DNA of 60,515 nucleotides, the filler included, from Squatina squatina (taxonomy: Eukaryota): NCBI GenBank assembly GCA_031763465.1. It is 3 parts of 3 records of this genome, joined end to end, with 100 filler letters (N's around TTAATTAATTAA, not from the genome) between each part and the next. Parts side by side here need not be neighbours in the genome. Positions count along the whole stretch, not along the records: positions 1 to 23,686 come from JARFOE010000058.1; 2 more parts are not named here. One strand, 5' to 3'. Numbering within the stretch: position 1 is the first letter of the stretch; each line of letters opens with the position of its first letter. This document shows, in pieces, positions 3,091 through 35,332 of this stretch. The position numbers and the translations under genes are program-made. The notes beneath the pieces are model-generated. The model was not told the DNA's origin. It did not search any database and was given only the letters and a program-made list of their open reading frames with translations.

Positions 3091-4249
3091 GCCATTAGAG
3101 GGAAGCGAAAAAAGAGCCATATGTTGTTGTGTTTGTTTTATTTAACTAGCCTGCCCCTCAGCCGGTGTTGGGATGGGGCTCGAGCACAATGGGGGAGGGG
3201 AAGCCCCTACATTTCTATATTTCCCATCTGCCTATATTTCCTTCCTTTCTGATAGGAATTAACCTAAGTCCGTACACATAAAAATAAACCAATACACCAA
3301 ACCATAGCAGCTGAATCCGGAGGCTACTTTTCCATGTGTAATTTTTCAGCTCCTATCCAGCTGATTGCAGGTGGATGCAATTCCTGGAGAGATAGTATAC
3401 GGTGACCAAGTTTAAGAAGATCGGATGTCCGACCGCATGAGATTTTGAGTTAAAAAAGACGTCCCCTGCTCAGTCCCAAGGCTCGATATAAATATATCGC
3501 AATCACTCTTCCTGGGTTGTGTTATTAAATGCTTCTGTCAGGTTTTTTGTTAAAATAGTAATGCTTCATTGTATTTTTCCACATTGTAATATTTGCAAAG
3601 TCCCACTCCAGCAGACAGCTGTTTTATAATTGTTCTAATGATTTTGCCATTTAATCTGCACTGTATAATTTCACAGCCCCGCTTCATAATTTGTGATATT
3701 TTGACCACAGCGAACATTTTGACTGGGTCACTGGTACAGATTGTTGCTTTTTTTTGAACCTATAGCCATTAGTTGTAACCCCGAGAGAAAGGAAAACAAT
3801 GGAAATCTCTCCCCCTTTAATCTCTGCTTTTAACAGAAATTTTTTGCCATTCTAACCGTATTCTGCTAATGCAGCAAGAGCAGCAGCCCTCCTTCTGTGC
3901 CTTTATCCCTGCTGTCAGGTGTTGCAATTTTACACTTGACTGAATCAGACAACCAATCTTCTTGGAACTGCCAGGCTCGAATTTTCAGATAATTTGCGAG
4001 ATGTGCAATGGGGGGCCAAGTTACTGCAGCCTTGTTCTCCAGTCCGCTTGTGTGCGGAACGACGCAGATCGTTCGGATTCTGAAACCCGCACCTTCAGAG
4101 CAGGAGCAAGCCCCGCTTAAAAAATAAACTCGAAGGGATAGAAATCGGGCTTTGCTCCGGGCCTGATCTACCGACTTACAACGGGCACGACGAGGGCCAA
4201 TTTCGAAGGGCCGCCGTCCCATGTCCAAAGTATGCCTCAAAGACATCCC

Positions 4250-4720
4250 ACCTGTGCCTCAGTGGGTTGCAGTCCCGCCTCTGAATCAGAAGGTTGTGGG
4301 TTCAAGTCCCACTACAGAGACTTGGCAGAAAAAATCTAGGCTGACATTCCAGTGCAGTGCTGAGGGAGCGCTGCAGTGTCAGAGGGGCAGTACTGAGGGA
4401 GTGCTGCACTGGTGAAGGTGCCATCTTTCGGATGAGACGTTAAACCGAGGCCTCGTCTGCTCTCTCAGGTGGATGTAAAAGATCCCATGGCACTATTTCA
4501 AAGAAGAGCAGGGGAGTTCTCCCGCTGTCTTGGACCAATATTTATCCCTCAATCATCTGGTCAGTATGACATTGCTGTTTGTGGGATCTTGCTCTGCGCA
4601 AATTGGCTGCCATGTTTCCCACATTACAACAGTGACTACACTTCAAAAAGTACTGCTGCATAGCGTTTTGGTAGTTCCAGCGGTTGTGAAAAGCACTGTA
4701 TAAATGCAAGTCTTTCTTTT
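4250..4720 (+). mobile_element. Near full-length tRNA-derived Deu-domain SINE (SacSINE1-like)
   Basis: A-box-like tgcctcagtgg, B box GGTTCAAGTCC at 4299-4309, Deu core (gaagagcaggggagttctcc...ccaatatttatccctcaa...acattgctgtttgtggga...gcaaattggctgcc), tail ataaatgcaagtctttctttt; ~33-bp internal duplication at ~4352-4418. Confidence 0.85.
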
Positions 4721-5019
4721 GTTCTTTCACCGCTATCCGATTGGTTCATTTTTCAGACGCCCCAGGCAGCTGCCAAAAACAGGCATTAGGCCCCTTACAT
4801 ATGTAAATGAGGGGCCTGGCACCTGATTTAGGCAGCTCTGGGAAACTGGATGGCAATGGCCAGGGCCGGAGCTGGGCCTTCTCAGCTCGGGATTGACCAG
4901 CAGGTGCTGCAGCCCAATCNNNNNNNNNNNNNNNNNNNNNNNNNNNNNNNNNNNNNNNNNNNNNNNNNNNNNNNNNNNNNNNNNNNNNNNNNNNNNNNNN
5001 NNNNNNNNNNNNNNNNNNN

Positions 5020-6100
5020 CAAACAAACCACATGCACAAACCATACACACACAATCCTCACACACACAAACCANNNNNNNNNNNNNNNNNNNNNNNNNNN
5101 NNNNNNNNNNNNNNNNNNNNNNNNNNNNNNNNNNNNNNNNNNNNNNNNNNNNNNNNNNNNNNNNNNNNNNNNNNNNNNNNNNNNNNNNNNNNNNNNNNNN
5201 NNNNNNNNNNNNNNNNNNNNNNNNNNNNNNNNNNNNNNNNNNNNNNNNNNNNNNNNNNNNNNNNNNNNNNNNNNNNNNNNNNNNNNNNNNNNNNNNNNNN
5301 NNNNNNNNNNNNNNNNNNNNNNNNGAAACACAAACCACACACACACAATCCCCCCAAAGCACACACACACAGACCACACACATACAAACCGCAAACACAC
5401 ACACATACAAATCACACACACGCACAAACTACACACACAAACTACAGACTTATAAAAAACGCACAAACAACACACACACGCAAATCACACACACTCACAC
5501 ACACAAAACACACACACAATCCACACACACACAAACCACACACAAACCACACACACACACAAACCACACACACAAATTCCGCACACACAAACCGCACAAA
5601 AACCACATACACACAAACCACACACACACAGACTATACACACAAACCTCGCACACACACTCACTCATTCACTCGCTCACACACTCACACACACACATTTA
5701 CTCACTCATTCACACTCGCTCAAACTCACTTTCACACACAGACTCTCTCACACTCACACTTACTCACACCCACTCGCTCAAACTTACTCACATTCATTCA
5801 TACACACACTCACTCATTCACTCGCTCACACTCACTCATTTACTCACAAACTCACTCACACACACTATCACATACTCACATGCACTCACTCTCATTCGCT
5901 CACTCATACACACTCACTCATTCACTCACTAACACGCACTCACTCAATCACTCATTCATACGCACTCACACACACACTCACGTGCTCACCCACACACTCA
6001 TTCACTCGCGCACACACACTCACTGACTCATTCATTCACTCATTCATTCATTCACTCACTCACACTCTCACATTCAGACACTCACACACACACAAATACA
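5020..6100. repeat. Degenerate compound microsatellite: (CA)n/CACACAAAC, then (CACT/CATT)n; includes a gap
   Basis: Direct inspection; motif changes near 5650. Confidence 0.9.
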
Positions 6101-6359
6101 CTAGTTAATATAATTAATTCTAACGCCATCTCATTTCTATCAGGCACCATTTTAACTTTGCTTTAGAAGCATGTTTTGCTTTCTCAGATTTTACGTTCAA
6201 CACCGAGTTAATTTCCTAAATGATTTAAATTCCAATTTCGCAATGAGCCCAAAGTTCACATTTGCACTAAGTCAGCAACACATTGCATGGGATGCGGTAA
6301 AGTGAGACAGGGAGGGTCGGTGTAGTTCAAAAAATGCAACGTTTGATTTGTAAATCAAA

Positions 6360-6760
6360 ATTGTTTAATGTTAACTTGGTTATAACCCTTTCTTCCTCCA
6401 AAAAAAACTGTACATAGGTTTTGTTAGAAAACAATTCTTCATAAATATTGTTTCAGCGGCAGGTAAATACCGGTGATTAAATTACAAGATGATAAATATG
6501 ACATTATGAATATGTATATTTACAGAAAATAGCTATCACAAAAAAGGCAGCGTTATACTTAACTGTCACAATCCTGTACTAGTGTGAAACTACATCCCAG
6601 CCTGTGAAAAGCACTCAAACAACAGGTTTGACCCAATCGAACGGGAGATACATTCACAAGGATTTTTTTTAAGTTCAAGACATAACAGGACTTTGGCACT
6701 TTTTTAAAGACTGAATTTTACAGTCAATCAGCTCCGAGGTGCCACCATGAGTTCACTATT
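6360..6760 (-). other. Candidate Zic3 distal 3'UTR with polyadenylation signal
   Basis: On minus strand downstream of Zic3 exon 1: U-rich, Pumilio-type TGTAAATA (6517-6524), TATTTAT elements, ATTAAA (6364-6369). Not linked to a visible last exon. Confidence 0.35.
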
Positions 6761-8869
6761 GAAACATATGGTCTACGATTCTGCCTCCCAACCCCCCTTT
6801 CCCCTTACACCATCCATTTCAACGACTTCCCTTATAAGCTACGCCTCAATTCTATTATCCTTTTGGAGGAAACATTCTGCTTGTTGTTCCTACTTACTAC
6901 TAAATTGCTACTTTTTAATCACTTTTTGTCCCTGATCACAATCTGCAATTTTCCATCAATTGAAAGTGGCGGCAGGTAAGAATTTCCTTGGGTGGAGGTG
7001 CAGAAAATCTACAATCACATTTTTGTTCTTTGTCTCCAGTCCTCATGGTCTCTTCAGACTGAACATCAGCTGCTGCTAAGAGGGTAGGTGGGCAACCTGT
7101 GCCCATACTTTTGCCAATGCCATTTACAAATGTAATGCTTCTTAAGGATTTTGGCCAAATGCTAAAAAGGAAAATCATTTGACACTATTTGCTTGCCCCT
7201 CTCATGTGCTTAGTTTGTGAGTGCTTGTATAAATTGTGGGGAGGAAAGGTGATTACTTTATCCTTACCCTCTGTTTCGTGCTTTGTGAAGGGCACAAATA
7301 GCATTTGCTGTGGAAGGGCTTTGTGATAATATGAAAAAATAGGAAACTGATTATATGACAAGTGAAAAGGGTTCACATAATTCATCCTGCAAGAATCATA
7401 ATGTAAGGCTTAATACAATGCAAATTTAAAGGTACAGGGGCCAAAATTCCCTTGCCCTGCGTTCCCGGTGCTGAAAACAAACTGTCCGGCCCATTAGCAC
7501 CCGGCACTGACTCCATGAAAAATGTGCAAAATTCGCCACTTTAGTAAAAAACAGGGCGTGGAGCTGTTACAGGCACTGATGGGCTCCATGGAGCACTGGA
7601 GGGCCGCTCTTGCTCACCTTCTGGCGAATTTCACATGACTATCATGCAGCAGTAATCAGCTTCCACTCCATGCCAGTCCTTAAATGAGTTGTGGCTCCTG
7701 CCTTCTGCTGCTCTCNNNNNNNNNNNNNNNNNNNNNNNNNNNNNNNNNNNNNNNNNNNNNNNNNNNNNNNNNNNNNNNNNNNNNNNNNNNNNNNNNNNNN
7801 NNNNNNNNNNNNNNNNNNNNNNNNNNNNNNNNNNNNNNNNNNNNNNNNNNNNNNNNNNNNNNNNNNNNNNNNNNNNNNNNNNNNNNNNNNNNNNNNNNNN
7901 NNNNNNNNNNNNNNNNNNNNNNNNNNNNNNNNNNNNNNNNNNNNNNNNNNNNNNNNNNNNNNNNNNNNNNNNNNNNNNNNNNNNNNNNNNNNNNNNNNNN
8001 NNNNNNNNNNNNNNNNNNNNNNNNNNNNNNNNNNNNNNNNNNNNNNNNNNNNNNNNNNNNNNNNNNNNNNNNNNNNNNNNNNNNNNNNNNNNNNNNNNNN
8101 NNNNNNNNNNNNNNNNNNNNNNNNNNNNNNNNNNNNNNNNNNNNNNNNNNNNNNNNNNNNNNNNNNNNNNNNNNNNNNNNNNNNNNNNNNNNNNNNNNNN
8201 NNNNNNNNNNNNNNNNNNNNNNNNNNNNNNNNNNNNNNNNNNNNNNNNNNNNNNNNNNNNNNNNNNNNNNNNNNNNNNNNNNNNNNNNNNNNNNNNNNNN
8301 NNNNNNNNNNNNNNNNNNNNNNNNNNNNNNNNNNNNNNNNACAAAGCTTCTCGCTGCGGGTTGCTTCACTGCAAGCGTGGTGAACAGACAAACACGGCGA
8401 CGACCAGACTGAAGCGAAAGCGATCGACGTTTGTTTGACTTCTTATCCAAAACGGAATAAAAGGCGGAATTTTATTATTGGGAGGTATTTTAAAAGCTCG
8501 GAACACGGACAATTGCATGTGGAGAATGTTTTGTCTTTATTTTAAAGGGAGGGAGCCCCTGGCGCTGAGCGGCCGGGTGCTGAGCTCCGAGTCTGTGGCT
8601 CCCCGACAGGACTCACTCGGTGAAGGGCAGCCTTTCCCCGGCAACTTTTGATCAAACCCAAACGGCGCCTGGCGCGGCCTCTCCGCCACAACAATGTGAC
8701 TCGGGATTAAAATCAAATTGTTTCTGTGCGAATGAAATCAGAGGCGATGGTTTTTAAGTTTCAGAATCCAGCGACATTACATTTTATTTCTTCAAATTAA
8801 TCATGAAAACAACTGGTAAATAACCTAGAGCGGCTGTTTTAACGGGGAATTGACACTTCTGTCTGTTAC

Positions 8870-9018
8870 CTGTGTGGGTCCGTTTGTGAATCTTTAGGTT
8901 TTCCGACCTGGCGAATATTTTCCCACATCCCGGGAAGGGACAAGGGAAGGGTTTCTCGCCCGTGTGCACTCGAATGTGATTAATGAGTTTGTACTTGGCC
9001 TTAAAGGATTTTCCCCCC
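8870..9018 (-). CDS. ZIC3: Zic3 exon 1, 3' part (ZF2 end and ZF3); 5' part lost in gap
   Basis: [49 protein letters not shown] then phase-1 donor G|GTAAC at 8869. GKSF and GKIF are Zic3-diagnostic (Zic1/2 have GKPF and GKVF). Linked to RBMX. Confidence 0.85.
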
Positions 9019-9118
9019 NNNNNNNNNNNNNNNNNNNNNNNNNNNNNNNNNNNNNNNNNNNNNNNNNNNNNNNNNNNNNNNNNNNNNNNNNNNNNNNNNN
9101 NNNNNNNNNNNNNNNNNN

Positions 9119-9725
9119 TACCATGGCTCCAGCAGCCACGGCGAGACTGGGGGCCACCCGTTCAGCCCTGGTCTGCACCACCAGAGCTTCCGCGGCGCCC
9201 CGTCCACCAGGGCTGTCAACGAGCAGATGGCCCTGGGTGTGCCGGGGCAGCTGGTCGCCAGGTCACGCCATTACAACAACCAGGTGACGGCTCCAAGAAG
9301 CGAGCATTACGTGACATCTTTACTTCAAAGCTACAACCCGATCACTCTGAACGTGGGTTTATGTGGTCACGGCGGGACGGGTCCATTCTTTAGATGCTTG
9401 AAACAACCCATCAAACGGGAGTTGGTCTGCAAGTGGATTAGCCAGGAACAAGAGCGCAAGAATTGCTGCTCGCGGGCATTCAGCACCATGAAGGAACTGG
9501 TCGCCCACCTGACGGTGGAACATGTTGGGGGAGCCGAACAGCTCACTCACGTCTGCTACTGGCACAGCTGCTCAAGGGATGGCAAGCCTTTCAAAGCCAA
9601 ATACAAACTGATAAACCACGTCAGGGTCCACACCGGGGAGAAGCCTTTCCCTTGCCCTTTCCCCGGCTGTGAAAAACTCTTCGCCAGATCCGAAAACCTG
9701 AAGATTCACAAGAGGACCCACACAG
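9119..9725 (+). CDS. zic6: Divergent Zic family exon 1 (ZF-NC plus ZF1-3), probable Zic6; 5' end in gap
   Basis: Open from the gap edge: YHGSSSH...NEQMALG...[10 protein letters not shown]...[19 protein letters not shown]...[15 protein letters not shown]...[21 protein letters not shown], donor G|GTCAGT at 9726. Head-to-head with Zic3. Zic family certain; the zic6 name is inferred from position and divergence. Confidence 0.75.
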
Positions 9726-10554
9726 GTCAGTCTGCTCGCTCCGTCCTCACTCGGGGGATTTGCGAGAGTTTGCTACCAACTTACATCGTTGTTTGTAACT
9801 TACTTTCGCACTGTTGAGAAAACGGATCCCTCTAAATGGCACTTAGATGAGTTTAAATTTAATAATTTGAGGAATGACAGTTGGAGTTCATGATCTTTAG
9901 TGATAGATGTGATTAATCAAGATGACACTACTGTACTAAAACTAAAACCCACAATGTCCGTGTGGAGATAACAGATACAAACACCCATGGCCCTTCGCCA
10001 CACTCTCATTTCTCGGCTTTAACAATGGATATTGTCATCGTGGAGCTGTTTTGTGAGAAGTTTGGTCTGAAGCAGTATTTGGAGATTCTGGGGCTAACAG
10101 CGGCTTTATAACATGTTTATTGGGTTATACATCAGGAAGCTGCCAGTTCACCGTGATTTCCCCTCGTGTTTCCTATGTTCTGACTGTCACATTTTTGTCA
10201 CGTACACTTGGTTAAAAAAATAAGATACATTCAAGATTAGAAACCGACAGATCCGCAATGTAACTGCTCGGGCCCTGTATAAAGAGAGTCTGTTTCCCAC
10301 ATTTAAACATTTGGCTCATAACATCCGTTCAAATCAATAAGACACAGTAATCGATCTTTATATATGCAAATCTGACAGAGGTATTGGTTAACCATATTCA
10401 AATTTGTTCCGGCGTATTCAGTACTGATACAGGCGCCCAGTACATGGACATACACTCAAACATGCTGACAAAGATAAATCCGCTTCGGGAAATCAGCTTA
10501 TCAACAGATTGCAACAGAAACTAGTGTGTGAATATTGGTGGAGGGATCGATTGA

Positions 10555-10765
10555 GACTGTATGTATCCATATCTACCTATCTACACATCAACCTATCTAC
10601 ATAATATATTTACATAAATATGTATATCATCAATATATAGATCTATGTATATCGTCAATTTCTATATGTGTGTATATCATCCTTCTATATATATGTGTAT
10701 ATCATCAATGTATCTATGTCTATGTGTGTGAGTGTCTATGATTATCTAAGCCATGTCTATATGTG
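10555..10765. repeat. Degenerate (TATC/TA)n low-complexity repeat
   Basis: Direct inspection. Confidence 0.75.
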
Positions 10766-10988
10766 ATGACGGAGAGTGAATTCTAATTAAAGCTACTATT
10801 TAGATAATTCTACTGAGTGTATTTATGGGTTTTATAGGTTGGGAAATCAAAGTTTTAACCTATGGGATTTATTTCAAATTGTTATTCTNNNNNNNNNNNN
10901 NNNNNNNNNNNNNNNNNNNNNNNNNNNNNNNNNNNNNNNNNNNNNNNNNNNNNNNNNNNNNNNNNNNNNNNNNNNNNNNNNNNNNNNN

Positions 10989-15744: not shown

Positions 15745-15932
15745 TGGTTTGAAATAAAAACTCACCTTACTGACAAAAAAGGTACAGGGTTATTTCTAAC
15801 ACTATCTGCCACCAACCTAAAAAAAAAAATTAAGTTATAAATAAGTTTTGTTGCTCCTCGCTCTTTTTTTTTGCTCTACCTCCCACAGTGGATTTGCATT
15901 TGATCAACATTGAAATATTTTCATTTGTTCAT

Positions 15933-16156
15933 TCAGGATGGTATGTTGCCTCCCTGGTGCAAGGGTCAGGGATGTCTCTGAGCGGCTGCAGAACATTCTG
16001 GAGGGGGAGAGTGAACAACCAGCTGTCGTGGTGCACATTGGCACCAACGATATAGGTAAAAAAAGGGATGAGGTCCTAAAAGGTGAATTTAGGGAGCTAG
16101 GAGATAAACTAAAAAGTAGGACCTCAAAGGTAATAATCTCTGGATTACTACCAGTG
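15933..16156 (+). mobile_element. CR1 LINE ORF1 SGNH-esterase domain fragment
   Basis: VCCLPGARVRDVSERL...VVVHIGTNDIG...KVIISGLLPV. Confidence 0.85.
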
Positions 16157-16984
16157 NNNNNNNNNNNNNNNNNNNNNNNNNNNNNNNNNNNNNNNNNNNN
16201 NNNNNNNNNNNNNNNNNNNNNNNNNNNNNNNNNNNNNNNNNNNNNNNNNNNNNNNNAAAATGCTAAACTTGCAGTGTAAAGCTGTTGGGTCCAGGCACTT
16301 TATAAACCAATCTGCCAGTAATTTCTGCTTAGGGACACTCCCTTACTCTACCATCTATACCTTCAAAACAAGATTGCCCACTTTCCAACTTGAGGTCTTC
16401 CTAATGAGGGAGGGAGATTGCCAGCTGGTTGGGGCACAAGTGGGCAAACTCCGGCTTCAATTTCTAACTATCGAGACAACTCTGCCCATGCATGTATCCA
16501 GGCTGGAACACGAAGTGCAGCTCGCGGTCTCAGACTGACACCAGCTATGTAAATACATGCTTAATGTTACATGCTGTGGATCTAACTTAGCACTTTCTGA
16601 ATGTACACATTTCTACAAGAGATGCTTCCAGATCTAAAACCTGAAATTCAAGCCAGAGAAGGAGTTTTGTATTTGTGCAAGGAATCCAAATGTATGGATC
16701 ATTAATGACATATTTCAGAATTCTGCACTTTAATCAGGTATTCATTCATTGCCCTACACTGCACTGTTTCAGCAAAATCGTACCCATCTCCCTTTTTATA
16801 AAATGACAGCACTAATTCACACAAAATATGCATTAAAAATACTACAGCCAAGCACAGATTTTGTAACAAACCACAGAAATAAGATGAGAAGTACTAACCC
16901 AGGACACAGAAATGAAGTCAAGAGAACATTCGTCTTCCATTTCTCACCGCCAAATGCTGTGGAAAGAACAACAATTAACCAAAA

Positions 16985-17455
16985 TACTACATTGGGGAGA
17001 CCAAACGCAGATTGGGTGACCGCTTTTCAGAACATCTCCGTTCAGTCTGCATGCATNNNNNNNNNNNNNNNNNNNNNNNNNNNNNNNNNNNNNNNNNNNN
17101 NNNNNNNNNNNNNNNNNNNNNNNNNNNNNNNNNNNNNNNNNNNNNNNNNNNNNNNNNNNNNNNNNNNNNNNNNNNNNNNNNNNNNNNNNNNNNNNNNNNN
17201 NNNNNNNNNNNNNNNNNNNNNNNNNNNNNNNNNNNNNNNNNNNNNNNNNNNNNNNNNNNNNNNNNNNNNNNNNNNNNNNNNNNNNNNNNNNNNNNNNNNN
17301 NNNNNNNNNNNNNNNNNNNNNNNNNNNTTAAAAACCTGCTACAATTCTAACTTTTTTCAATTCTGACGAAAGGTCATCGACCTGAAACGTTAACTTTGTT
17401 TCTCTCTCTCCACAGATGCTGCTTGACCTGCTGACTATTTCCAGTATTCTGTTTA
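16985..17455 (+). mobile_element. Penelope-like element: GIY-YIG endonuclease fragment, gap, terminal repeat
   Basis: 16985-17056 encodes YYIGETKRRLGDRFSEHLRSVC; after the gap comes the same terminal repeat as at 2778-2890. Confidence 0.8.
17359..17395 (+). ncRNA. Minimal hammerhead ribozyme motif, second copy
   Basis: aatt-CTGACGA-a-aggtc-atc-gacct-GAAAC-GTT-aact; perfect stem II, one mismatch in stem I. Confidence 0.65.
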
Positions 17456-18344
17456 AATAACCAAAATACCAGTTAGACTATAGTGAAAAACTTTTCTGGT
17501 CTAGTAATCCTGAGTACTGAATGTCCTTTCCAACTTTCAAAACATGCTTTATCACTTAACTTTTGGGAGAGTTTTGGGGTGTGGTGCTCCCTTCTTTCAG
17601 TCAATGCCCAATGCAGTACTGAAGAAGACAGAGGATCACTTCTCAATTTTGAACAATCGCTGCAGAGACCATTTGGTTGCCTTTATGCAAAGTGATCAAT
17701 TGCTGAACAAAGTTCTAAGCCATGCATCATTAAGTTAGTCAAACTAATTAGCGAGGACAACTGGTAGGTCTTGAAAGGTGCGTTTCTTTAAAAGGGACAG
17801 GATCCCCAAATGATTTCTCAAGTTTGTTTGACTGACTCACGCATGGTACACAGCAGAAACATGTCTTATTTTGTTGCAAAAATGCTCCTGTAGCCCATGG
17901 AGCCTGAAGCTACAAAGCACAGCAATAGGACTGATCAATTTTTTATTGGGTTTCTATTAGGATAAGGGCAGTAGCTGTCAGTGAATGCAGACCTCATGCA
18001 TTTGCACTTTATTACAAAAGTTCATCATCGTTAATATATCAAATAAAAAAGGTCTTCCAAATAAACCTGAAGTCCTGTGACTGTGCTCCAATTTTGTTTT
18101 TGTTCAATCTGTTCATGCAATAGAAGAATATGCTGATGGAGTGAGATGAAGAGGGCTGGAGCAGAAACATCAGCACAGAACAGTTGGGCCAAATTCTGTG
18201 TGAATGTTTTACTTTGCTCAGTAAAAGAGATTTTATTAGCAGTTTTCTGCTGGTTGAATTTATGTAGTAGAGCCTATTTCCCATTCTCTTCAAAGTAAAA
18301 CACAAGAGGTATGGGAGGCAGAACTCAGTACGATACTAGGATTT

Positions 18345-18560
18345 GAAGTTATCGTTATGAGGGGAGACTTGAGACAGCAGGGCTACTTCCACTGGAGCAA
18401 GAGGAGAGTTAACATGAGTTTTTTAAATTATGGAGGGTTTTGGTAGGGTAAAGAGGGAAAGATTATTCCCCCTGGATGAGCAGTCAGTTATGAGTGGCTA
18501 TCAATTGAAAATGTCACTCAGAAAATGCGGAGGGGGGGGTTGGGAGAAATTTCTTTACGT
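18345..18560 (+). mobile_element. Degenerate CR1 ORF2 C-terminal fragment
   Basis: Resembles the SYEERL..LGLFSLE..RGD....FKIM.GFDRV..E.LFP segment. Confidence 0.55.
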
Positions 18561-19297
18561 ATGTTATCTTTTCCATTTCCACTTATAGCGGAATCAGGTT
18601 TTAGAACGTAGATGCTGACGGAATGAATCAAAAATGAAGGAAACAAACCTATTGACAATAACTTATTCACTGCCCATGGGTTCATGCGCTGCAGTGTCAG
18701 AGGTCACATACAAAATCTCATGCCAGTTTATTGATTGCAGCGCCTTTGGGTTAGTGACATTTTTGCAACATAATTTCAACCACCACCACAGCAATGCGAT
18801 CGATTCAACATAACCCAGATATAACCAACAAAAAATGACACTGCACATTACTCACTCTTGTACATTCTAGCAGAAACATATCCTGCAGGTGTTCCGAGCA
18901 AGACCCACAGAACAACAGCACAGGTCATCAATGCTCCTCGGTTGGCAGGTGAAAGGAACCCAAGGCAGGCGAGGACTGTACAGTGGGTGGAAGAAAAGAA
19001 AGGTCTCAGAATGTACAGCAAAATACCACTTTTCTGGGTCTCTATTTCCTCAACTGACAGCAGCTCCTCCTCAGTACAGACAGGGTTGTATTTCTCTACT
19101 ACTCATGTATTCTGAAAGGTGTGATGAAGGAATTTGACTTTTTTCATACACATCCAACCCGTAGACAAATAGTAATCCTGACCTTTATGAAATTAATTAT
19201 CTCCATTGCTAGATTTTCTGCTCTACATCATAAAAAATGAAAAAAACTGCAGCTTTTTGCATATTCCAACCTGCTCGTTCTACATTGCAGTGCGACT

Positions 19298-19392
19298 GTG
19301 AAAATACCTGTGGAGAAACAGTGGAGTTAACTGTTGAGGAGTCCCACTTGTAAAATTAACTCCTCGGTTCCCTCCACGGGTATGATTTCACC
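19298..19392. repeat. Imperfect inverted repeat, likely a MITE
   Basis: gtgaaaatacctgtggagaaacagtggagttaa pairs with ttaactcctcggttccctccacgggtatgatttcac. Confidence 0.6.
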
Positions 19393-19837
19393 NNNNNNNN
19401 NNNNNNNNNNNNNNNNNNNNNNNNNNNNNNNNNNNNNNNNNNNNNNNNNNNNNNNNNNNNNNNNNNNNNNNNNNNNNNNNNNNNNNNNNNNNTGTAGTCA
19501 TCATTGTCAGCACAGAGGGAAGATTCCTCCCTCCGTTTCCTCATAAGGTCCATCCCTTCCCCAAACAACAGTAACCCCACCTTTTGGGTACTAATTTTGC
19601 AGCAACTAGTCTTGCACCTTCCCATTCCTTGTTCTTTCCACTGTGATATGTAATCAAGATATCCACATGATTGAAGACATAGTAGGTGTTCTTCTTGTTG
19701 AATTCAGACTGCAAAATACAAAAGGAATTTAACAGGAAGTTAACAAAATCTGAGTGTCTTTTGGCAAAATTCATCTAATTAGGACACACGATCCAGAAAT
19801 ATGATATTGCCATAATCAGACACATTAACAGAAATTG

Positions 19838-21264: not shown

Positions 21265-21408
<144 letters not shown>

Positions 21409-21619
21409 TAGCATTCCCTCTAAGCATTTAACCAAGATGGCATTAGTCTGGTGAGGNNNNNNNNNNNNNNNNNNNNNNNNNNNNNNNNNNNNNNNNNNNN
21501 NNNACAGGCCCTCTCAATAGTGAACACAGAAGAAAAATACTCATTCAAGACCTCTCCTATCTCTTCAGACTCAATACACATATGTATAGAGGGAGTGTTG
21601 CAGGAGCAAATTGTAATTT

Positions 21620-21694
21620 AGCAGTGATGACTTTATTGGCATTGATCTTGTGAGCTGACGTTTGCCCTTTTTGTCCTCTAAGAAGTTCTGAGCT
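21620..21694 (+). ncRNA. SNORD61: Box C/D snoRNA SNORD61 (U61)
   Basis: C box GTGATGA at 21624-21630, D box CTGA at 21688-21691, terminal agc/gct pairing, guide TGTCCTCTAAGAAGTT complementary to 18S rRNA AACUUCUUAGAGG; same RBMX intron as in human. Confidence 0.9.
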
Positions 21695-21761
21695 TTCTTC
21701 AGTTATACTGAAAGTACAAATTGGCAGTGGAGCATCGAGTAACTTTTTAATCTCCTTTTAG

Positions 21762-21822
21762 TTCTGCTGATGAAAGATCGTGAAACAAATAAGTCGAGGG
21801 GTTTTGCTTTTGTTACTTTTGA
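21762..21822 (+). CDS. RBMX: RBMX second coding exon, 5' part only
   Basis: Acceptor ctccttttag, then (V)LLMKDRETNKSRGFAFVTF (RNP1). Homology stops abruptly; the expected ESPADAKDAARDMNGK is absent. Confidence 0.85.
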
Positions 21823-23338
21823 TACGAGTGTTTTTCACGTAAGCGGAAAAAAATGGCAAAAAAAAAAGCACAAATATTACACATCTGCCAATATCCAGCA
21901 TTCTGGTGTGCATCCACACATTAATTTTTTTACCATTTTTTTCCAGATACATTTTAAAACAAAACCCCATTTAATTTGATTGAAGGCAGTTCTTCTCTTA
22001 AATCAAACATTTGCCAGTTTATCTGCTTTACTGTGGCCCATGCTGGATTGATTAATCAACAACTTGCATTTATAGGGCACCTTTAACAAAATAATGGCAT
22101 ATCGAAATCATGAGTTTTAAGAGGCTTTGGGAGATGTGGAAAAATGTAGCGAGAAGGACAGTATAGCAGAGGGAGGGGAAATGCACACTGATTCTGAGAT
22201 AGTGGGAGCTGCAAGTGGAGATATTAGACTAGGGTGCAGCAGATGTAGCATGAAAACTGAAGTGAAGGGCAGCTCTGTGAAGAATACCAGCTGAGCTGAC
22301 AGAATGATGAAATGCCAACTCAGGAGATCAAGCCTCAACTACTGCCTACACTCGCACTTAGCAAGCTTGATGTCTGTTGACAGCCAGGGTCCTTGCTGAA
22401 ACATTAGTTCAGCTCCAGGAGAAGGAAACTGGCAGGATTAGATGGGTTTCACAGAAGCAAAACTTCTACCAGCTGTTCAAGACAAAAGTGTGGGCAGCAA
22501 TCATGGGGAAGAGTGCAGCTATCCCTTCTGTTAAAGGAACAACTTCAATGATGGGAGGCAACAAAAAAAGAATTGAATGGAAAAAGGCTCATCAAAAGTA
22601 CATTAACAGCAACCTGTCCGATCATAGAATCTACCCAAGCCTTTTCAGATAACAACCAACCACAGGAAGAGCCTTCAAGGTTAAAAGATTCTGAAATTTC
22701 TATTAGACCACTTAAAATTAACCAAACAAAATTCCTGATGTTAATCTAACCTTAAAACTAACTTTCTTATTCAATGCTTAGCTATTTAATTCTACAGGTA
22801 TTTCATCCATCATCTCCGCACCAAAAAAAAACTGTACTGCAAAAAGNNNNNNNNNNNNNNNNNNNNNNNNNNNNNNNNNNNNNNNNNNNNNNNNNNNNNN
22901 NNNNNNNNNNNNNNNNNNNNNNNNNNNNNNNNNNNNNNNNNNNNNNGCATATCTTTACTATAGGTACAGCTTTGTTAATAACAGTCCCTTTGACAGCTCA
23001 GAAGAGAGGGAGGAGGTCAGGTTTGCAGTGAGGACCACTTGATGTGTAATTTTAGAATGCACATACCGTAGTATGATGCGCAGTGTCTGCTGCGTTATCC
23101 TCCATGTAATTGTAATGACCATTGGTGTTTCATAACACTTGTGGTTCTATAAAGCAAATCACAATCAGCTGGCAAGTGAAGTTGAACAAACAATTATACA
23201 TTGGATCCTATTGAAACCTTTAGTTCCAAAGCAAAAAGCAGGGCTCTATTTGACTCCGGTATCACTTGTGGTTTGTGCCTCCAGCTCACAACTGACCGTA
23301 TGCCCTTGAAGCACCCTTTAAGTTGAATCCAGTCCTGA

Positions 23339-23581
<243 letters not shown>

Positions 23582-23686: not shown

Positions 23687-23786
23687 NNNNNNNNNNNNNN
23701 NNNNNNNNNNNNNNNNNNNNNNNNNNNNNNTTAATTAATTAANNNNNNNNNNNNNNNNNNNNNNNNNNNNNNNNNNNNNNNNNNNN
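23687..23786. other. Artificial scaffold linker N44-TTAATTAATTAA-N44
   Basis: 12-mer with stops in all six frames centred in exactly 100 positions. Confidence 0.95.
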
Positions 23787-26739: not shown

Positions 26740-26912
26740 TTTTAAAGTGTGTGTCCAGGTTGGTTTGTGTCAGCAGCGAGCGGCTCCTCCCTCTCCGAGC
26801 TGTCATTCACTCGCACTGCTGCTCATTACCGGGGCGCCGCTGCCAGTCTCTCTCCCCGTTCACTCGCTCGGCTCTTCCACCTTGAGGCGCGGAGCAGCCA
26901 GCCCGGTTGACC
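26740..26912 (+). promoter_or_regulatory. CPE: CPE GC-rich promoter and 5'UTR
   Basis: CpG-rich segment directly upstream of the Kozak gaccATGG. Confidence 0.55.
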
Positions 26913-27154
26913 ATGGCTTGGTGGCGTCTTCTCCTGACCTGCTCGGCGGTGTGGGGAACAGCAGCCTGGGCGAGGGCAGCGATGCCCGCTGACCCTCCCG
27001 GACCGCGCTCCGCTTCCGACCCGGCGTCCGAGGGGATCCCGTTCGAGTATCACCGCTACCCGGAGCTGCGCGAAGCCCTGGTTGGTGTCTGGCTCCAGTG
27101 CCCCAGCATCAGCCGCATCTATACGGTCGGCAAGAGCTTCGAGAGACGGGAGCT
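26913..27154 (+). CDS. CPE: Carboxypeptidase E exon 1 (signal peptide and start of M14 domain); 3' end in gap
   Basis: [20 protein letters not shown]...[38 protein letters not shown]. Confidence 0.93.
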
Positions 27155-30100
27155 NNNNNNNNNNNNNNNNNNNNNNNNNNNNNNNNNNNNNNNNNNNNNN
27201 NNNNNNNNNNNNNNNNNNNNNNNNNNNNNNNNNNNNNNNNNNNNNNNNNNNNNNNNNNNNNNNNNNNNNNNNNNNNNNNNNNNNNNNNNNNNNNNNNNNN
27301 NNNNNNNNNNNNNNNNNNNNNNNNNNNNNNNNNNNNNNNNNNNNNNNNNNNNNNNNNNNNNNNNNNNNNNNNNNNNNNNNNNNNNNNNNNNNNNNNNNNN
27401 NNNNNNNNNNNNNNNNNNNNNNNNNNNNNNNNNNNNNNNNNNNNNNNNNNNNNNNNNNNNNNNNNNNNNNNNNNNNNNNNNNNNNNNNNNNNNNNNNNNN
27501 NNNNNNNNNNNNNNNNNNNNNNNNNNNNNNNNNNNNNNNNNNNNNNNNNNNNNNNNNNNNNNNNNNNNNNNNNNNNNNNNNNNNNNNNNNNNNNNNNNNN
27601 NNNNNNNNNNNNNNNNNNNNNNNNNNNNNNNNNNNNNNNNNNNNNNNNNNNNNNNNNNNNNNNNNNNNNNNNNNNNNNNNNNNNNNNNNNNNNNNNNNNN
27701 NNNNNNNNNNNNNNNNNNNNNNNNNNNNNNNNNNNNNNNNNNNNNNNNNNNNNNNNNNNNNNNNNNNNNNNNNNNNNNNNNNNNNNNNNNNNNNNNNNNN
27801 NNNNNNNNNNNNNNNNNNNNNNNNNNNNNNNNNNNNNNNNNNNNNNNNNNNNNNNNNNNNNNNNNNNNNNNNNNNNNNNNNNNNNNNNNNNNNNNNNNNN
27901 NNNNNNNNNNNNNNNNNNNNNNNNNNNNNNNNNNNNNNNNNNNNNNNNNNNNNNNNNNNNNNNNNNNNNNNNNNNNNNNNNNNNNNNNNNNNNNNNNNNN
28001 NNNNNNNNNNNNNNNNNNNNNNNNNNNNNNNNNNNNNNNNNNNNNNNNNNNNNNNNNNNNNNNNNNNNNNNNNNNNNNNNNNNNNNNNNNNNNNNNNNNN
28101 NNNNNNNNNNNNNNNNNNNNNNNNNNNNNNNNNNNNNNNCCTCCAGCTTGAATAACAACATTATTTTCACAGTCTAAAGGCAGATGTGCTTGAAATCAAT
28201 AATGTGTCTGCATATTCCAAATAATGTGTTTTTTTTATGAAAAGGGTTATATTTACAGTCAAGAAATGGGAAAACCATCAGGTGAAAATGCATTAGAGGT
28301 CAGTGTGTAGTATAACCCGGCATTTCATGGCATCCCCTCTGGCATGGGCGCAGTCTGCAATAGAAGCATTGTTTGGGGACTGAGTCTGATTTAAATGTAT
28401 GATGTAAACTGTTCACCAAATCCGAAACATAAGAAAATGATTATTTCAGGTTCAGTTTTGAGGGATGATTCTGCTCCTTTTGAAAAATGCCCACATTATT
28501 TGGAAATGCCCCAAATACCTCAGCTCACATAAAGAATGAAAGCTATCATCCCTGTTAGGACATTAAACCATTTTTGAAGGGAGGGAGAAGGGGGTAATAA
28601 GAGAATAATATGCTGGAAATTCAACCTATTGGTATTTTGATCTATTCCCTTGTCATATGTAAGTTCACACAAGAAAGTGTCATTTATGTTGCAGGGAGGG
28701 GGAGAGAATTAGAGGAGAATAGGAGGAGAAAGTTGCTTTCTGGCATAATTTCTAACTGTAAAAGGTTATGTTAACTGGAATCCCTGTTTGAAGTAATGCA
28801 TGTAATTAATAATGTTACATTATCATAAGTCCAAGTGATTGTAGCAATTACAGCATCTTCCAACACGACGCTGTTAATGGCATAGACATCAGAGTGGAAA
28901 GCAGAGGTACCTTTCCAAAAATAGGAATGTGACCTTTCAGAAGTAATCCAATTTAATAACAGTCTGAATAGAAACACATGCAGCCTTTATTCTGCCTGCT
29001 GTTTGGTGCCCATAACTCTGCAACTGGAGTAGGCATCTGATTCATGTTAATGATGTAGATAGAGGGATGCTTTCAGCTTTGTGGTGCTGCTGAAATCTGA
29101 GAGAGACACGCTTCAGGTCTCTCTGGGTTTGTTTGCATTGATGTACAGAGATTCGCTTTAATTGTGTGAAGATTATGAGCATTCACAATGCCAACTGCAT
29201 CTCGCTAATCAATACTTTGTGTGAGTACCTTGCCCCAAAAAATCTCCTGGACTGCTTGCCATTGGCTAATGTTTCTCGCACAATACTCACACCCACATGG
29301 TTTCATTATTCTTCCCAAATGGTACCTAGCATGGCTGACATGTTGAGGGGTGGATGGATGGATGGAATCTGTAACAAAGCTTAAACAGCTAGTGAATTAC
29401 TGCAGGAGTACAAAACACTGGCAAACAGCTGTTTATGGTTTAACAGTTAAACTGTAAAGGGCTGTGAATGAATGAATTGAGCCCAGCACAATATGTCTTT
29501 TGAATGCTATCTTTCCTGTGCAGATTACCAAATGTTGACTATATTTCACATTAGAACACATTTGTTATATTGAGAGCACTTTAATCTTGAGACAAGGTAC
29601 TGTAGCAACTTAAATAATGAATTGTCTGCATATGTGAAGCTGTAGTGGTGAAAACTGCATAATTCTAAAATACACATTTATTACCCTATCAAAATAACTT
29701 GGGTGTTGTGGACTATTTGCTACTTGTGCACAATTNNNNNNNNNNCTCTGGGATGCAGATTTTAGGATGGTCTTGTGCGATAGTGAAAGAACATCTGTAA
29801 CGAATTTGTTCCTAATGCAATATCAGCCCTGTTCAGTTTGTTTTCTTTCTCCTCCCCTGAATATATTTTCTATTAAAATAGCTGAGGCAGGCAGGCAAGC
29901 CAGAAATAAGGATGTTCACCCACTAACCATCCTGCTCGAAATGTTAGTCAGTACAAGGTGTGCATCTTCCCAAATGTCTATAGGAAAAGCTCAACAAGCC
30001 TTTACCTTTTTCTTGAAGGAGGGAGGAGAAAGGCCCTTTAGAACATTCCCTAGCTAACTGAGGTTTGGACAAACCCATTGCATACATATGGTAAACAGAT

Positions 30101-30241
30101 TGGTGAACCAGGCTCCCTCGGGGCTTCAGCTTTGACCCCAGAAATATGAAGCAATTACTATCAAGGTGTGTGTGAGTAAATCATATTTTCCATCATGTTT
30201 AATTGTGCGCTGCAAATTTATCATTGATCTTAAAGAATGAG

Positions 30242-30381
30242 GGAGGTGAAATTTGTCTTGAATGGGAGTGCAAAATGAGCGATGGTGCATCAGCAGCCGA
30301 AAATCGGGCGGAGAGTAAGACAGGCTGCCGGTACGCTATCGCCTGTGGCTAGGGCAACCACACAAGACAAGTTTCACCCCC
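30242..30381. mobile_element. ~140-bp MITE with ~19-bp TIRs
   Basis: ggaggtgaaatttgtcttg ... caagacaagtttcaccccc, plus inner inverted arms gcgatggtgcatcagcagcc / ggctgccggtacgctatcgc. Confidence 0.7.
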
Positions 30382-30840
30382 TGGTGTGTTATATATTTTA
30401 GTTGTATTCCTATCTTGAACTGAAGCATTTTTACCATCACCTGGAAGCCAATTCTCTTTTGGTTATGTCACTCTCTGTGTAAGATCCTGTAAAAGTCGTT
30501 AAATATTTTCCATGAGATAATACAGCCAGAAATAGTGAACGTAGCAAATATTTTCATGGATGACAAATTATTCAGTGCTGGTATATAAAAAAAGTACAGT
30601 CATTAGAAAGCAGAGAGTAGATTATTGTCCCCTTTCGAGATTTTTTGACCATTTATCCACAGAACGGACTTGGGGAGAGGGGAGAAAGAGTAACTTTTTA
30701 CTTGTAAGCTATTTAAATCAAATTGAATTCATAAATGTTTTCTTTAAAAACAGGTTCTGAGACAGTAGGTGGTTAAAATTTTAATGGGCTAAGTTTTGAT
30801 ATTGTTTTCCCATAGACTGTAAATAATAAATATATTTTTA

Positions 30841-31237
30841 GCCTGTCTCAATTTCAAAATTCTCATCCTTATTTTCAAATTCCTCCATGGCCTTGCCCCT
30901 CCCTATCTCTGTAATCTCCTCCAGCTCCCCCAAATATCTGTGCTCCTCTAATTCTGCCCTCTTGAGCATCTCTGATTATAATCACTGTAACATTGGTGGC
31001 AGTGCCTTCTACTGCCTAGGCCCTAAGCTCTGGAATTCTCTGCCTAAACCTCTCCATCTCTCTCACTGCTCCTTTTAAGACACTCCTTAAAACCTACCCC
31101 TTTGAACAAGCTTTTGGTCACATGCTCCATTTTCTCCTTAAGTGGCTCGGTGCCAAATCTTTGGTCTCATAATACTCCTGTGAAGCGCCTAGGGACATTC
31201 TACTGCGTTAAGGCGCTATATGAATACAAGTTGTTGT
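30841..31237 (+). mobile_element. L2 LINE 3' end
   Basis: FKILILIFKFLHGLAPPYL...GGSAF.CLGPKLWNSLP, 3'UTR and caagttgttgt tail. Confidence 0.85.
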
Positions 31238-31337
31238 NNNNNNNNNNNNNNNNNNNNNNNNNNNNNNNNNNNNNNNNNNNNNNNNNNNNNNNNNNNNNNN
31301 NNNNNNNNNNNNNNNNNNNNNNNNNNNNNNNNNNNNN

Positions 31338-31607
<270 letters not shown>

Positions 31608-31789
31608 TGACAGCAGAATGTGCTCCATATCCCTAGATACTTGTAATAATGTCACCTGTTCACACGTTTGGCATTTCTCTGAAAGGATAGTCCTCTCTTT
31701 GGGAAAAACCATTTTGCCATTCATGATGGTTTATCTTATACTTCAAACAATTCACCAGATTTTGCTTTCCTCTGCTCTGCTGAAGGCAT

Positions 31790-32120
31790 TGCCTCATGCT
31801 GGAATGCAGTTGAGCAAGTTGGACGAGGTTCCATTCTTCATGTGTGAGTTTCGACAGTAACCTTCAGCAGGATATTTAACCATGGAGGTCATCATCACTG
31901 AGACCGATCATTTACTCACCCAATGCCCATACCTCTGCATTTTCCAGTAGGGATCGCGAGACAGTGATTCCATCCCACCCCAGACCAGAATTGGTAATGG
32001 CAGCTGCACTGCCACCTGGTGAAATCAGCAACTCAACGTGGACTAAGGGTTAGTCTGGGTCCTTCCAGATCTGTGTGGGTTCAGTTCCATACTTGATAAA
32101 GCATTTGCAGCTGGATAGCC
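31790..32120 (-). mobile_element. Old SINE-like repeat, second family; related pieces at ~35640-35830 (-) and ~36290-36450 (+)
   Basis: Mutual similarity by eye (cattcttcatgtgtgag...gacag...tcagca; ggtccttccagatctgt). Confidence 0.4.
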
Positions 32121-32149
32121 TGAATCACCAGATTTTAACCAAAACATTT

Positions 32150-32745
32150 GGGGGTGAAATTTGGTAGAGCTTTTGTTAAGGCGCTACACAAAATGCTAGC
32201 ACCTTAATAGCGCCTAGAAGCGGAGGTGCAATGACGTCGCAAAATTTGGGTTTTAAAAAATTTTTTGGGGGGCGAGGCGAGTTTGGGAGGCGCTAAGTCG
32301 GGACTTTTGGCGCAATGTCCAGAGGCGACCTGCTGGCTACGGAGGCGAGGCGCACACGCACCATTCCATGGCCCTGACTTGACATTGCAGCAAATCACTT
32401 CAGACACAAGAAATGAATGCTGATTCCAGGAAATCATGGCTGTCTGAAGGAGTTCGCACCAGATGAAGGCAAACACACCAGACTATGACAACAGTGCTGA
32501 GTAACAGGNNNNNNNNNNNNNNNNNNNNNNNNNNNNNNNNNNNNNNNNNNNNNNNNNNNNNNNNNNNNNNNNNNNNNNNNNNNNNNNNNNNNNNNNNNNN
32601 NNNNNNNNCCTTTTGATGATGTGGTACGCCGACCTTCTGCGAAATTTCCCGGGCGAGGCACAAAAGTGTCTGCGCCTGGCTGCGACATAGCCATTCCGGC
32701 ATGCCCAATTTCTCTTTTCGTGGAAAAAAGGGGAAATTCGCCCCC
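32150..32745. mobile_element. Non-autonomous DNA transposon ends with GGGGGYGAA TIRs (Harbinger-like); spans a gap
   Basis: Starts gggggtgaaatt, ends aaattcgccccc-taa, CpG-rich ggcg repeats inside. Confidence 0.5.
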
Positions 32746-32913
32746 TAAATATCGATGTCTAGATTTCAAGAAATATTTGGTTTATGTTGGCCTCCTTCCA
32801 TGCAGTAAATTTCTATGAATCTATTCTATGATTCTATGTTTTACAGATAATTTTAATTATATTCAGCAGTAAATTTTTATGTAGGTTTTCTTCCCCTTGT
32901 TTTTCCCTTCCAG

Positions 32914-33081
32914 ACAGGTGATCTGAAGGACTGGTTTGTGGGGCGCAACAATGCACAAGGAACAGACCTCAACAGAAATTTTCTCGATCTAGATCGGATA
33001 GTCTACGTGTATGAACGGGAAGGAGGGCCCAATAACCATCTTCTGAAAAACATAAAGCTTTCTGTGGACAAAAACACAAAG
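32914..33081 (+). CDS. CPE: CPE exon 3
   Basis: [56 protein letters not shown]; AG/GT boundaries, 168 nt. Confidence 0.95.
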
Positions 33082-34261
33082 GTAGGAGTGTGACTACAAG
33101 ATTCTGGGACAAAGTGGTCCCATTCACTGCTGCTGAGCAATTGAATGCTCATAATTTGTCCCAGTATTTTCTTCACATGTTATCTTGTATAAAGTTATCA
33201 GGTTAGAAGAATGGACGAGGATAGTATTCCCCAATTTTTCTTTTTTACAAACACGTGTACACACACGTACAAAATAGGGTAGCTATCCTCAAAAAGTGCT
33301 CCTAACCAGAAGTGTTGCTTACAGCCAGCAGTGCTTAGCAAATTGTGGGCCCATAGTGCCTGATTGTTCCATTCATTTATTTAAGTAGACAGGAAAATGG
33401 GATGTAGGCCTGTGATTTCCTGACAAGTACCCACTGTGAGCACCCTTTCTGGGAAATGGCTCAAGTGTCTCCTATCTACTTGAAGATATATGTGTTATTG
33501 TAGAGTATTTTCTGGCTAATATTTTGGGTCTCCATTCTCCTCCAGCACCACCTAGGTGCTTTAGNNNNNNNNNNNNNNNNNNNNNNNNNNNNNNNNNNNN
33601 NNNNNNNNNNNNNNNNNNNNNNNNNNNNNNNNNNNNNNNNNNNNNNNNNNNNNNNNNNNNNNNNATGAGTAAAGAAAAAGTGCGATATCCTGGAAAATCT
33701 ATAAATGAGATTTCCATTATAACTTACCATTGAAAGTACACAGCATTCTGTGCAACCATCCTTTACACATCTTCTAGTGTTATTATGCATAGTGACAATG
33801 ACAGAGGATTTTAATTTTAAAAACAACTGATGTCAAATACTGGGTGGCTGTCATGGTTACAGGTAGAAGTCCAATCTTAGTATTTATGTGATTGGCTAAA
33901 CTTCATTCTCATGCTTTATGATATCATCTGAACCCCTTATTGGATTATTTCCACACAGTCGATGTTTTCGTACATAGACCAGAATGGAAGTGTGTACGAC
34001 AAAAGGACACCGCCCACTGTGTTAAGTGAAGGGAAGAGAAACAGTTTTAATGTTATGTTTTACTGATATGATTGCCCTGCACACATCACTCCCATTTTTG
34101 TTGCTCAGGAGTCATAGAGCTATTCCCACCAATAGAATGTGAAATTATATTCTGTAGACCCTCCAAATGCAATATCCTGTATTTGCTGGCAGTTTTCAAA
34201 GAGAGCCTGAAATCGCTCAACAAGAACTTGTACAAAAGAGTTGATTATGTTCCATAACACT

Positions 34262-34341
34262 TGATATTCCATTTGTTCTCTCAGCAAATCTTCATGGTGG
34301 TGACGTTGTAGCGAACTACCCATACGACGAGACTCGCACCG
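34262..34341 (+). CDS. CPE: CPE exon 4, 3' part only
   Basis: [27 protein letters not shown] with donor G|GTAAAT; expected 5' part LAPETKAVIHWI is missing and an in-frame TGA lies upstream. Confidence 0.85.
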
Positions 34342-35332
34342 GTAAATACAAAAGGAACCTGATGAAAAATGATGTTTGCTCGGCATAAATATAGAGCATA
34401 AAATGAACAAAGTAAAGTGATATAAACATGTCAGTCTCTCAGAGGGTTGCTACCTTTATGTCATACAGCAGCATACAGGCAGGCCAACGGGGCAGAGCTC
34501 TACTCTGTTACAAGGTTTAGAGGAGGGAGTAAATAATGCCATGATGTCGCCAGAGGTTTGTGCAGCAGCAGTTGTCAATCCTGTTCCAACACAGATGTTT
34601 GCTACAACACAAACTTCCTGCTGCAGTCAAAATAACAAGTTGGCTTTTCCGAACTTGAATTTTCTCAGTAATATGTTTTTAGAAATAAAGTTTTCATTAA
34701 AAAACTCAGTTTTATGGATCTGTGGTAAAAGTAGAGTGATTACATACCTGATGACACCTTAGCCAGTGGTTTAAAAAAACCTCAGACTTTTCATGTTGGT
34801 GAAAGTGATCGCTTAATGAAATTGACAAATATAATACTTTTAAGATGCTTTTCTGGACATTGTTATTTTAAAAATACCATATAGAGATAAAGACAAATGG
34901 GAAACGTTGGCTATATGCTTGAAACTCATAGCACTACAAAGTATTCACATTTGTTTTAAAATATATAATCAATTGGTTTTTCATTTTCCCCCATGTCACA
35001 CACACTCTGAAAAGTCTCATTCAGGCTTTACTGACAGATAGTTATTTCTGGTATCAAACCAATTCTTTTTCCAGCCATTGCGATCAAGTGTCAAGTAAGG
35101 GGGGCAGTGAGGGGAGAGAAGAAAATTCCTGAGTCACAATGCAGTCCAGTCCCAACAGCTTTGTACACATGGGAGTGAATGCAAAGAAAAACCATCAGTC
35201 CAGTAGCATTTTTTCAACAGACTATAATAATTNNNNNNNNNNNNNNNNNNNNNNNNNNNNNNNNNNNNNNNNNNNNNNNNNNNNNNNNNNNNNNNNNNNN
35301 NNNNNNNNNNNNNNNNNNNNNNNNNNNNNNNN

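Follow-up and report, generated by a model that had tools for sequence, protein, structure and literature searches.

Zic6 is described as evidence for an early third pair of Zic genes that "remains only in teleosts" (PMC4467302), as a gene whose retention is limited to teleosts (PMC6771876) and as one lost from tetrapods (PMC7403390), while vertebrates other than teleosts are credited with five Zic genes (PMC6175831), as far as the available text of these papers goes. A locus of Squatina squatina at which two pieces of Zic coding sequence point away from one gap raises the question of whether a cartilaginous fish also carries a sixth Zic gene beside Zic3 and, if so, which way the pair faces. 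We analyzed this locus within a window of 60,515 nucleotides (the whole stretch of DNA examined) from assembly GCA_031763465.1. Very probably, it carries the first coding exons of shark Zic3 (minus strand) and Zic6 (plus strand), as neighboring genes that likely form a head-to-head pair. The features of the window are as follows.

8341..8869, minus strand: start of Zic3 intron 1; no match to exon 2
8870..9018, minus strand: 3′ end of the first coding exon assigned to Zic3 (second half of finger 2, finger 3); 48 residues, cut by the gap, with a GT donor past 8870
9019..9118, no strand: unsized scaffold gap of 100 N, within which both 5′ ends and the putative shared promoter region are hidden
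9119..9725, plus strand: 3′ part of the first coding exon assigned to Zic6 (N-terminal region, ZF-NC, fingers 1-3); 607 bp, open frame, zinc ligands kept (P0001)
9726..10888, plus strand: start of Zic6 intron 1, with a GT donor at 9726; no match to exon 2
16820..19774, minus strand: TM9SF (EMP70) gene, three exons in order (Pfam EMP70 profile positions 101-141, 273-321 and 318-349), pointing towards Zic6
21280..23547, plus strand: first three coding exons of RBMX (21280, ~21770 and 23390), from RRM_1 matches and translations; divergent from TM9SF
23687..23786, no strand: artificial linker (12-base motif with stops in all frames, flanked by 44 N on either side) that closes the Zic-locus segment
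38928..39027, no strand: second artificial linker of the same composition

Two Zic pieces on either side of a gap

The initial annotation described two Zic exon-1 zinc-finger arrays diverging from one gap. Both pieces are indeed present and point away from 9019-9118, but the minus copy amounts to 149 bp and is not a whole array. The two stop at the same intron position (same codon position), each with a GT donor (8870 on the minus strand, 9725 on the plus strand). Within the common finger region they are identical at 115 of 149 bases (77%), as against 23 of 100 in the flanking introns, indicating two genes rather than one duplicated contig. Exons 2 and 3 of Zic3 or Zic6 were absent from the whole window in a match search. 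Coding sequence missing in the gap comes to at least 837 bp for Zic3 and ~350-430 bp for Zic6, a total of at least ~1.2 kb, and includes the N-terminal part of Zic3 (ZOC-box/subclass A region).

The 48 residues of the minus piece are identical in 14 of 315 stored Zic proteins, and all 14 are elasmobranch Zic3. A single difference sets chimaera Zic3 apart; over the 48 residues there are one or two differences in most bony-vertebrate Zic3, two or three in three skate Zic3, and three in the closest Zic1, 2, 4, or 5. Both residues regarded as diagnostic of Zic3 are present, a Ser in finger 2 and an Ile in finger 3. Among the 315 proteins the pair occurs in 86, every one either named Zic3 or retrieved through a Zic3 search or Zic3 clusters (one has a UniRef 'ZIC 5' label), and the Ile is missing in three skate Zic3. 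On these residues the piece at 8870-9018 is assigned to Zic3. The same 48 residues match elasmobranchs only and the best matches of the plus copy are sharks, bearing out the view that the host is a cartilaginous and not a ray-finned fish.

The contig that carries the minus piece (8341-9018) is CpG-rich, with an observed/expected ratio of 1.01. On the 3′ side of Zic3, two AT-rich, repeat-free stretches (3200-3900 and 6300-6900) resemble, by eye, a conserved non-coding element and a 3′ UTR, and a long imperfect CA-rich simple repeat at 5020-6100 gives spurious His/Thr-rich frames. Our Pfam scan covered 292 frames of at least 55 codons outside 4700-6100, a scope from which short exons may escape. 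It also returned weak OSK/GDSL-like matches for a fragment at 15914-16156 (plus strand), which we take to be probably the esterase-type ORF1 of a LINE.

Orthology of the plus-strand gene

Membership of the plus piece in the Zic family is indicated by Pfam zf_ZIC (E 8e-21), with zf-C2H2_15 also over the cut-off, and by the ZF-NC, the atypical finger 1 and the Trp-containing fingers 1 and 2 (Pfam and alignment). A PDB search returned generic fingers and human ZIC3 only. Its best matches are proteins of Heptranchias, Pristiophorus, and Heterodontus (80% identity), and its chondrichthyan relatives (59-80% identity) are labeled 'ZIC 1-like', 'ZIC 3-like' or uncharacterized and are distinct from annotated shark Zic1, 4, and 5. 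In all, this sixth Zic gene is represented by 25 sequences from 19 named shark, ray, and chimaera species, none of them labeled Zic6. Fingers 1-3 are visible in the window, and five fingers were found in all 13 orthologues examined.

Which Zic gene is it? Several characters place it in subclass B, with Zic4/5. The Cys spacing of finger 1 is 11-12 in the window copy and in 13/13 orthologues, 12 in 16/16 Zic4/5, and 14 in 17/17 Zic1-3. Absence of the ZOC box, Ser in finger 4 and a four-residue Cys spacing in finger 5 are common to 13/13 chondrichthyan orthologues and 16/16 Zic4/5 and occur in 0/17 Zic1-3; these three traits were scored on the orthologues, as the window copy lacks those parts, with an assumed pattern for the ZOC core. 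Another character is shared with teleost Zic6. Val or Leu replaces Ile in the finger-2 helix in 25/25 chondrichthyan sequences, 17/17 teleost Zic6, the window copy, and one of 267 others, and that sole exception is itself teleost-Zic6-like.

The finger-free part of the protein gives a similar picture. When the N-terminus of chimaera Zic6, fingers excluded, served as the query of a sensitive search, the top match among 27 was a shark orthologue, followed by the representative of a 90% cluster that holds Cynoglossus 'zic family member 6' (122.5 bits, E 2e-30), with Zic5 at 101.7 bits. A word-indexed search with the Heterodontus N-terminus returned 13 chondrichthyan proteins and no bony fish; it missed teleost Zic6 as well and is thus mute on coelacanth, lungfish, and gar.

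A maximum likelihood tree was built from 52 rows, namely 13 of the 25 chondrichthyan sequences, four teleost Zic6, 33 Zic1-5, the window copy, and one unnamed protein, with the subclass A/B root taken from the literature and no outgroup. The plus copy and the 13 chondrichthyan proteins formed one group (100/99), which joined teleost Zic6 (100/99), and the plus copy paired with that of the sawshark Pristiophorus (99/97) at 81% identity, which makes a squalomorph shark the likely host. Zic1-5 formed five separate groups, each holding its own shark member. When the longest branch was left out (26 rows), the grouping of chondrichthyan and teleost Zic6 was kept (SH-aLRT 98), and on that tree AU tests rejected a union of the plus copy with Zic4 (p 0.0003) and with Zic5 (p 0.002). 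In agreement with the initial annotation, the plus copy thus falls outside Zic1, 2, 4, and 5.

Some measures run against Zic6 orthology. The window piece is 52-56% identical to teleost Zic6, below its identity to Zic1, 4, or 5 (56-61%), and its nearest atlas cluster is a Zic4 fragment, so that orthology rests on the tree, the shared characters and synteny. Teleost Zic6 is a long branch, and both Zic6 groups are fast-evolving. These are the points in favor of a different reading, in which Zic4 or Zic5 was duplicated in chondrichthyans only, and the extra gene, here the plus copy, ended up next to Zic3 and is drawn to teleost Zic6 in trees solely by long-branch attraction. Against it stand the AU tests, the specific match of the finger-free N-terminus and the finger residues held in common with teleost Zic6, and the partner gene, Zic3, which is the same as that of teleost zic6; moreover, a separate Zic4 and a separate Zic5 are present in sharks, on different sequences. 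We regard such a duplicate as very improbable and largely refuted. The piece at 9119-9725 is assigned to Zic6, as the shark copy of the sixth Zic gene.

A further Zic6-like protein, P0285 (430 aa), is very divergent, and its nearest atlas cluster is 'Zic family member 6'. It joined teleost Zic6 on a long branch in the maximum likelihood tree and, without teleost Zic6, stayed outside Zic1-5 (SH-aLRT 91). If P0285 comes from a lobe-finned fish or an amphibian, the date of Zic6 loss would shift.

Zic3 and Zic6 are neighbors in cartilaginous fishes

Adjacency of the two genes had been read from their join in the window, which alone proves nothing; support comes from independent chondrichthyan assemblies. 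Of the 14 species for which both genes were retrieved, 13 carry Zic3 and the sixth Zic on sequences of the same length, and in the 14th the two come from a draft assembly with scaffolds of 20-25 kb. Four of the 13 species give them successive identifiers, namely Amblyraja (XP_032886209/210), Leucoraja (XP_055499943/944), Cetorhinus (XP_078403833/834), and Callorhinchus (EukProt P001022/P001023); in the other nine the accessions are non-consecutive and 6 to 2108 apart. As controls, Zic2 and Zic5 of Cetorhinus share one sequence length, and catshark Zic4 and Zic5 sit on sequences other than that of Zic3.

Skate gives the order of the genes. In the available part of PMC10115646 (SI Table 10), the promoter baits on Leri_12C run from Rbmx (37.40-37.41 Mb) through Tm9sf2-1 (37.43-37.44 Mb) and 'Zic1-1' (37.59-37.60 Mb) to Zic3 (37.60-37.63 Mb), the last two in adjacent bins of a table that gives no strands. 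By position, 'Zic1-1' would be the skate orthologue of Zic6, and at least six Zic gene models are present in that species (PMC10115646, in the part available). The TM9SF exons of the window, a gene that the initial annotation did not mention, correspond to skate Tm9sf2-1, whose baits come after Rbmx and before the two Zic genes, and both fishes have the order RBMX, TM9SF, Zic6, Zic3. As the initial annotation had stated, RBMX lies on the Zic scaffold, its exons starting at 21280 (plus strand), on the same side of the linker at 23687-23786 as the Zic pieces; its name rests on recognition of the protein and on skate gene order. The TM9SF gene beside RBMX (16820-19774) looks intact, and its human counterpart is a pseudogene. 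At the paralogous Zic2/5 locus, Zic5 is the member of the pair that TM9SF2 adjoins, in keeping with one common ancestral order.

Because the window consists of three unrelated segments joined by spacers, gene neighborhoods across the spacers are not real. The middle segment holds exons of a carboxypeptidase E-like gene (Peptidase_M14, 26886-36102, plus strand), which was rejected as a neighbor of RBMX since the concatenation linker at 23687-23786 lies between them. No GPR101 was seen in the window. In skate, the LE gene numbers do not follow position, with LE19513 at 22.4 Mb and LE19521 at 37.6 Mb; they were not used to order genes, and skate Gpr101 (LE19526) therefore cannot be placed.

The gene identities could be right and the head-to-head join nevertheless a product of reference-guided scaffolding, with a different arrangement in the animal. 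The window is fragmentary, consisting of 42 contigs and 41 N runs, of which 27 measure exactly 100 N. Besides the concatenation linkers, it holds at a contig start (10990-11005) what we take, from its motif, to be a sequencing-adapter remnant, a sign of an untrimmed short-read assembly. At another 100-N gap of the same locus, TM9SF profile positions 142-272 (~130) are skipped, indicating that such gaps hide kilobases, and the Zic-RBMX locus spans 23 kb here as against ~200 kb in skate. Contig order in the window was probably set by a scaffolder or a reference and not by reads. However, linkage of Zic3 and Zic6 is conserved from the chimaera to skates and sharks, the order in skate is identical, and an order copied from a reference would still be a chondrichthyan order. 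A real arrangement that differs from the one seen here is accordingly quite improbable.

Zic3 and Zic6 are neighbors in cartilaginous fishes, and it is likely that they form a head-to-head pair. That orientation is visible in the window across the unsized gap, and the adjacent promoter bins of skate agree with it, without strand. In skate pectoral fin buds, 'Zic1-1' and Zic3 are both expressed, with active promoters and similar log2 fold changes of -3.2 and -3.4 (PMC10115646 SI Table 5, in the part available). A Zic pair on Leri_14C, with baits in adjacent bins at 17.97-17.99 Mb, has fold changes of -6.2 and -6.2, and all six skate Zic rows listed in the available tables shift in the same direction (PMC10115646), so that the common sign is not specific to the Zic3/Zic6 pair.

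By analogy with Zic1/4, Zic2/5, and zebrafish zic3/zic6, the two genes would be transcribed divergently, likely from one shared promoter region and with shared distal enhancers. Zic6 may be a five-finger transcription factor co-expressed with Zic3. Zic3 would act as a subclass A activator. Zic6 would be a subclass B factor and, if the results for ZIC4/5 in the available text of PMC7403390 extend to it, is predicted to need composite sites for activation.

Ancestry and orientation of the Zic3-Zic6 pair

The initial annotation held that Zic6 is ancestral to jawed vertebrates and was lost in tetrapods, and that each of the three Zic clusters started out as a bigene. A chondrichthyan copy supports this, but the model is not new, having been published already (PMC4467302, PMC7403390, in the text available). 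The vertebrate genome duplications may have turned one ancestral pair of a subclass A and a subclass B gene into three, Zic1/4, Zic2/5, and Zic3/6, after which Zic6 would have survived in cartilaginous fishes and teleosts and been lost in the line to tetrapods (lobe-finned or tetrapod stem). No chondrichthyan Zic6 was reported in the accessible portion of the full-text literature searched, and 'zic6' is absent from the supplements of PMC11589584, PMC3964593, and PMC13200729; an earlier notice elsewhere is possible, if not probable. New here are the chondrichthyan orthologue of Zic6 and the reversed polarity of the inversion discussed below, the rest being mostly anticipated by the 2007 model.

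Orthologous neighbors, with a Zic6 of subclass B type, are also found in the teleost zic3-zic6 pair (zebrafish chromosome 14; PMC4467302, PMC6771876, PMC7403390), whose divergent orientation the chondrichthyan pair likely shares. At 610-730 aa, chondrichthyan Zic6 exceeds the teleost protein (~525-555 aa) in length, and it is less diverged. Further, in the available accounts zebrafish zic6 faces the conserved enhancers and fgf13a, whereas chondrichthyan Zic6 faces TM9SF and RBMX. The Zic1-Zic4 and Zic2-Zic5 bigenes likewise set a subclass A gene head to head with a subclass B gene, but they are kept in tetrapods, form separate clades in the tree and lie on separate chromosomes in sharks. The X-linked ZIC3 singleton of mammals has the same neighbor, RBMX, and faces away from it in the same manner, but Zic6 is gone.

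This last likeness bears on how the locus was rearranged. Zic6 is on the RBMX side in the window and in skate, and shark Zic3 thus faces away from RBMX, as mammalian Zic3 does, with the human strands at the ZIC3 locus and the place of FGF13 taken as background. Upstream of zebrafish zic3, on the far side of zic6, are the conserved elements and fgf13a (PMC4467302, PMC6771876, PMC7403390). The amniote Zic3 enhancer lies 3′ of Zic3 and a paralogous sequence lies 3′ of Zic2, from which an ancestral 3′ position was deduced (PMC6175831), and mammalian ZIC3 has RBMX and GPR101 as neighbors on the side opposite the enhancers (order, PMC12890961), according to the accessible text of these papers. None of six published primers for these zebrafish elements matched the window with fewer than five mismatches, a result without bearing on the polarity.

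In the available text of PMC7403390, which cites Keller and Chitnis (2007), Zic3 is said to have changed its orientation through a deletion/inversion on the chromosome from which the mammalian X derives. If this published polarity holds, the zebrafish arrangement is ancestral, Zic3 flipped with the deletion of Zic6 in the mammalian or tetrapod line, and the shark needs a second, independent flip. Such a history appears unlikely, given the position of Zic6 on the RBMX side in window and skate, the mammal-like facing of shark Zic3 and the 3′ enhancer position deduced from the Zic2 paralogous sequence (PMC6175831, in part), and since one ray-finned flip is simpler than two flips. With shark Zic3 oriented as in mammals and enhancer-like sequence 3′ of Zic2, one ray-finned inversion and a tetrapod-line deletion make the simplest account. 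It is therefore reasonably probable that the inversion belongs to the teleost side, and that the tetrapod change needs only the deletion of Zic6. On balance, we also favor the view that chondrichthyans keep the ancestral gnathostome locus intact (RBMX, TM9SF, Zic6, Zic3), that mammalian ZIC3 never flipped, and that the teleost pair was inverted under a fixed enhancer landscape.

If this account is true, the published polarity of the rearrangement at the human heterotaxy locus would be reversed, and the teleost flip would have swapped the gene nearest the conserved enhancers, which may be why teleost Zic6 evolves so fast. Chondrichthyan Zic6 supplies the outgroup evidence that was missing from the 2007 bigene model and bears on the polarity of the Zic3-locus inversion. 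The redistribution of bigene enhancers after loss of a partner (tetrapods) or a flip (teleosts) would become testable in skate and catshark embryos and with existing chromatin data. In the databases, Zic6 is mislabeled in every shark, ray, and chimaera record seen. The finding amounts to a neat correction of an evolutionary account, not to a new type of system: Zic6 changes from a 'teleost-specific' to a gnathostome gene, and the Zic3-Zic6 pair would be as old as the jawed vertebrates.
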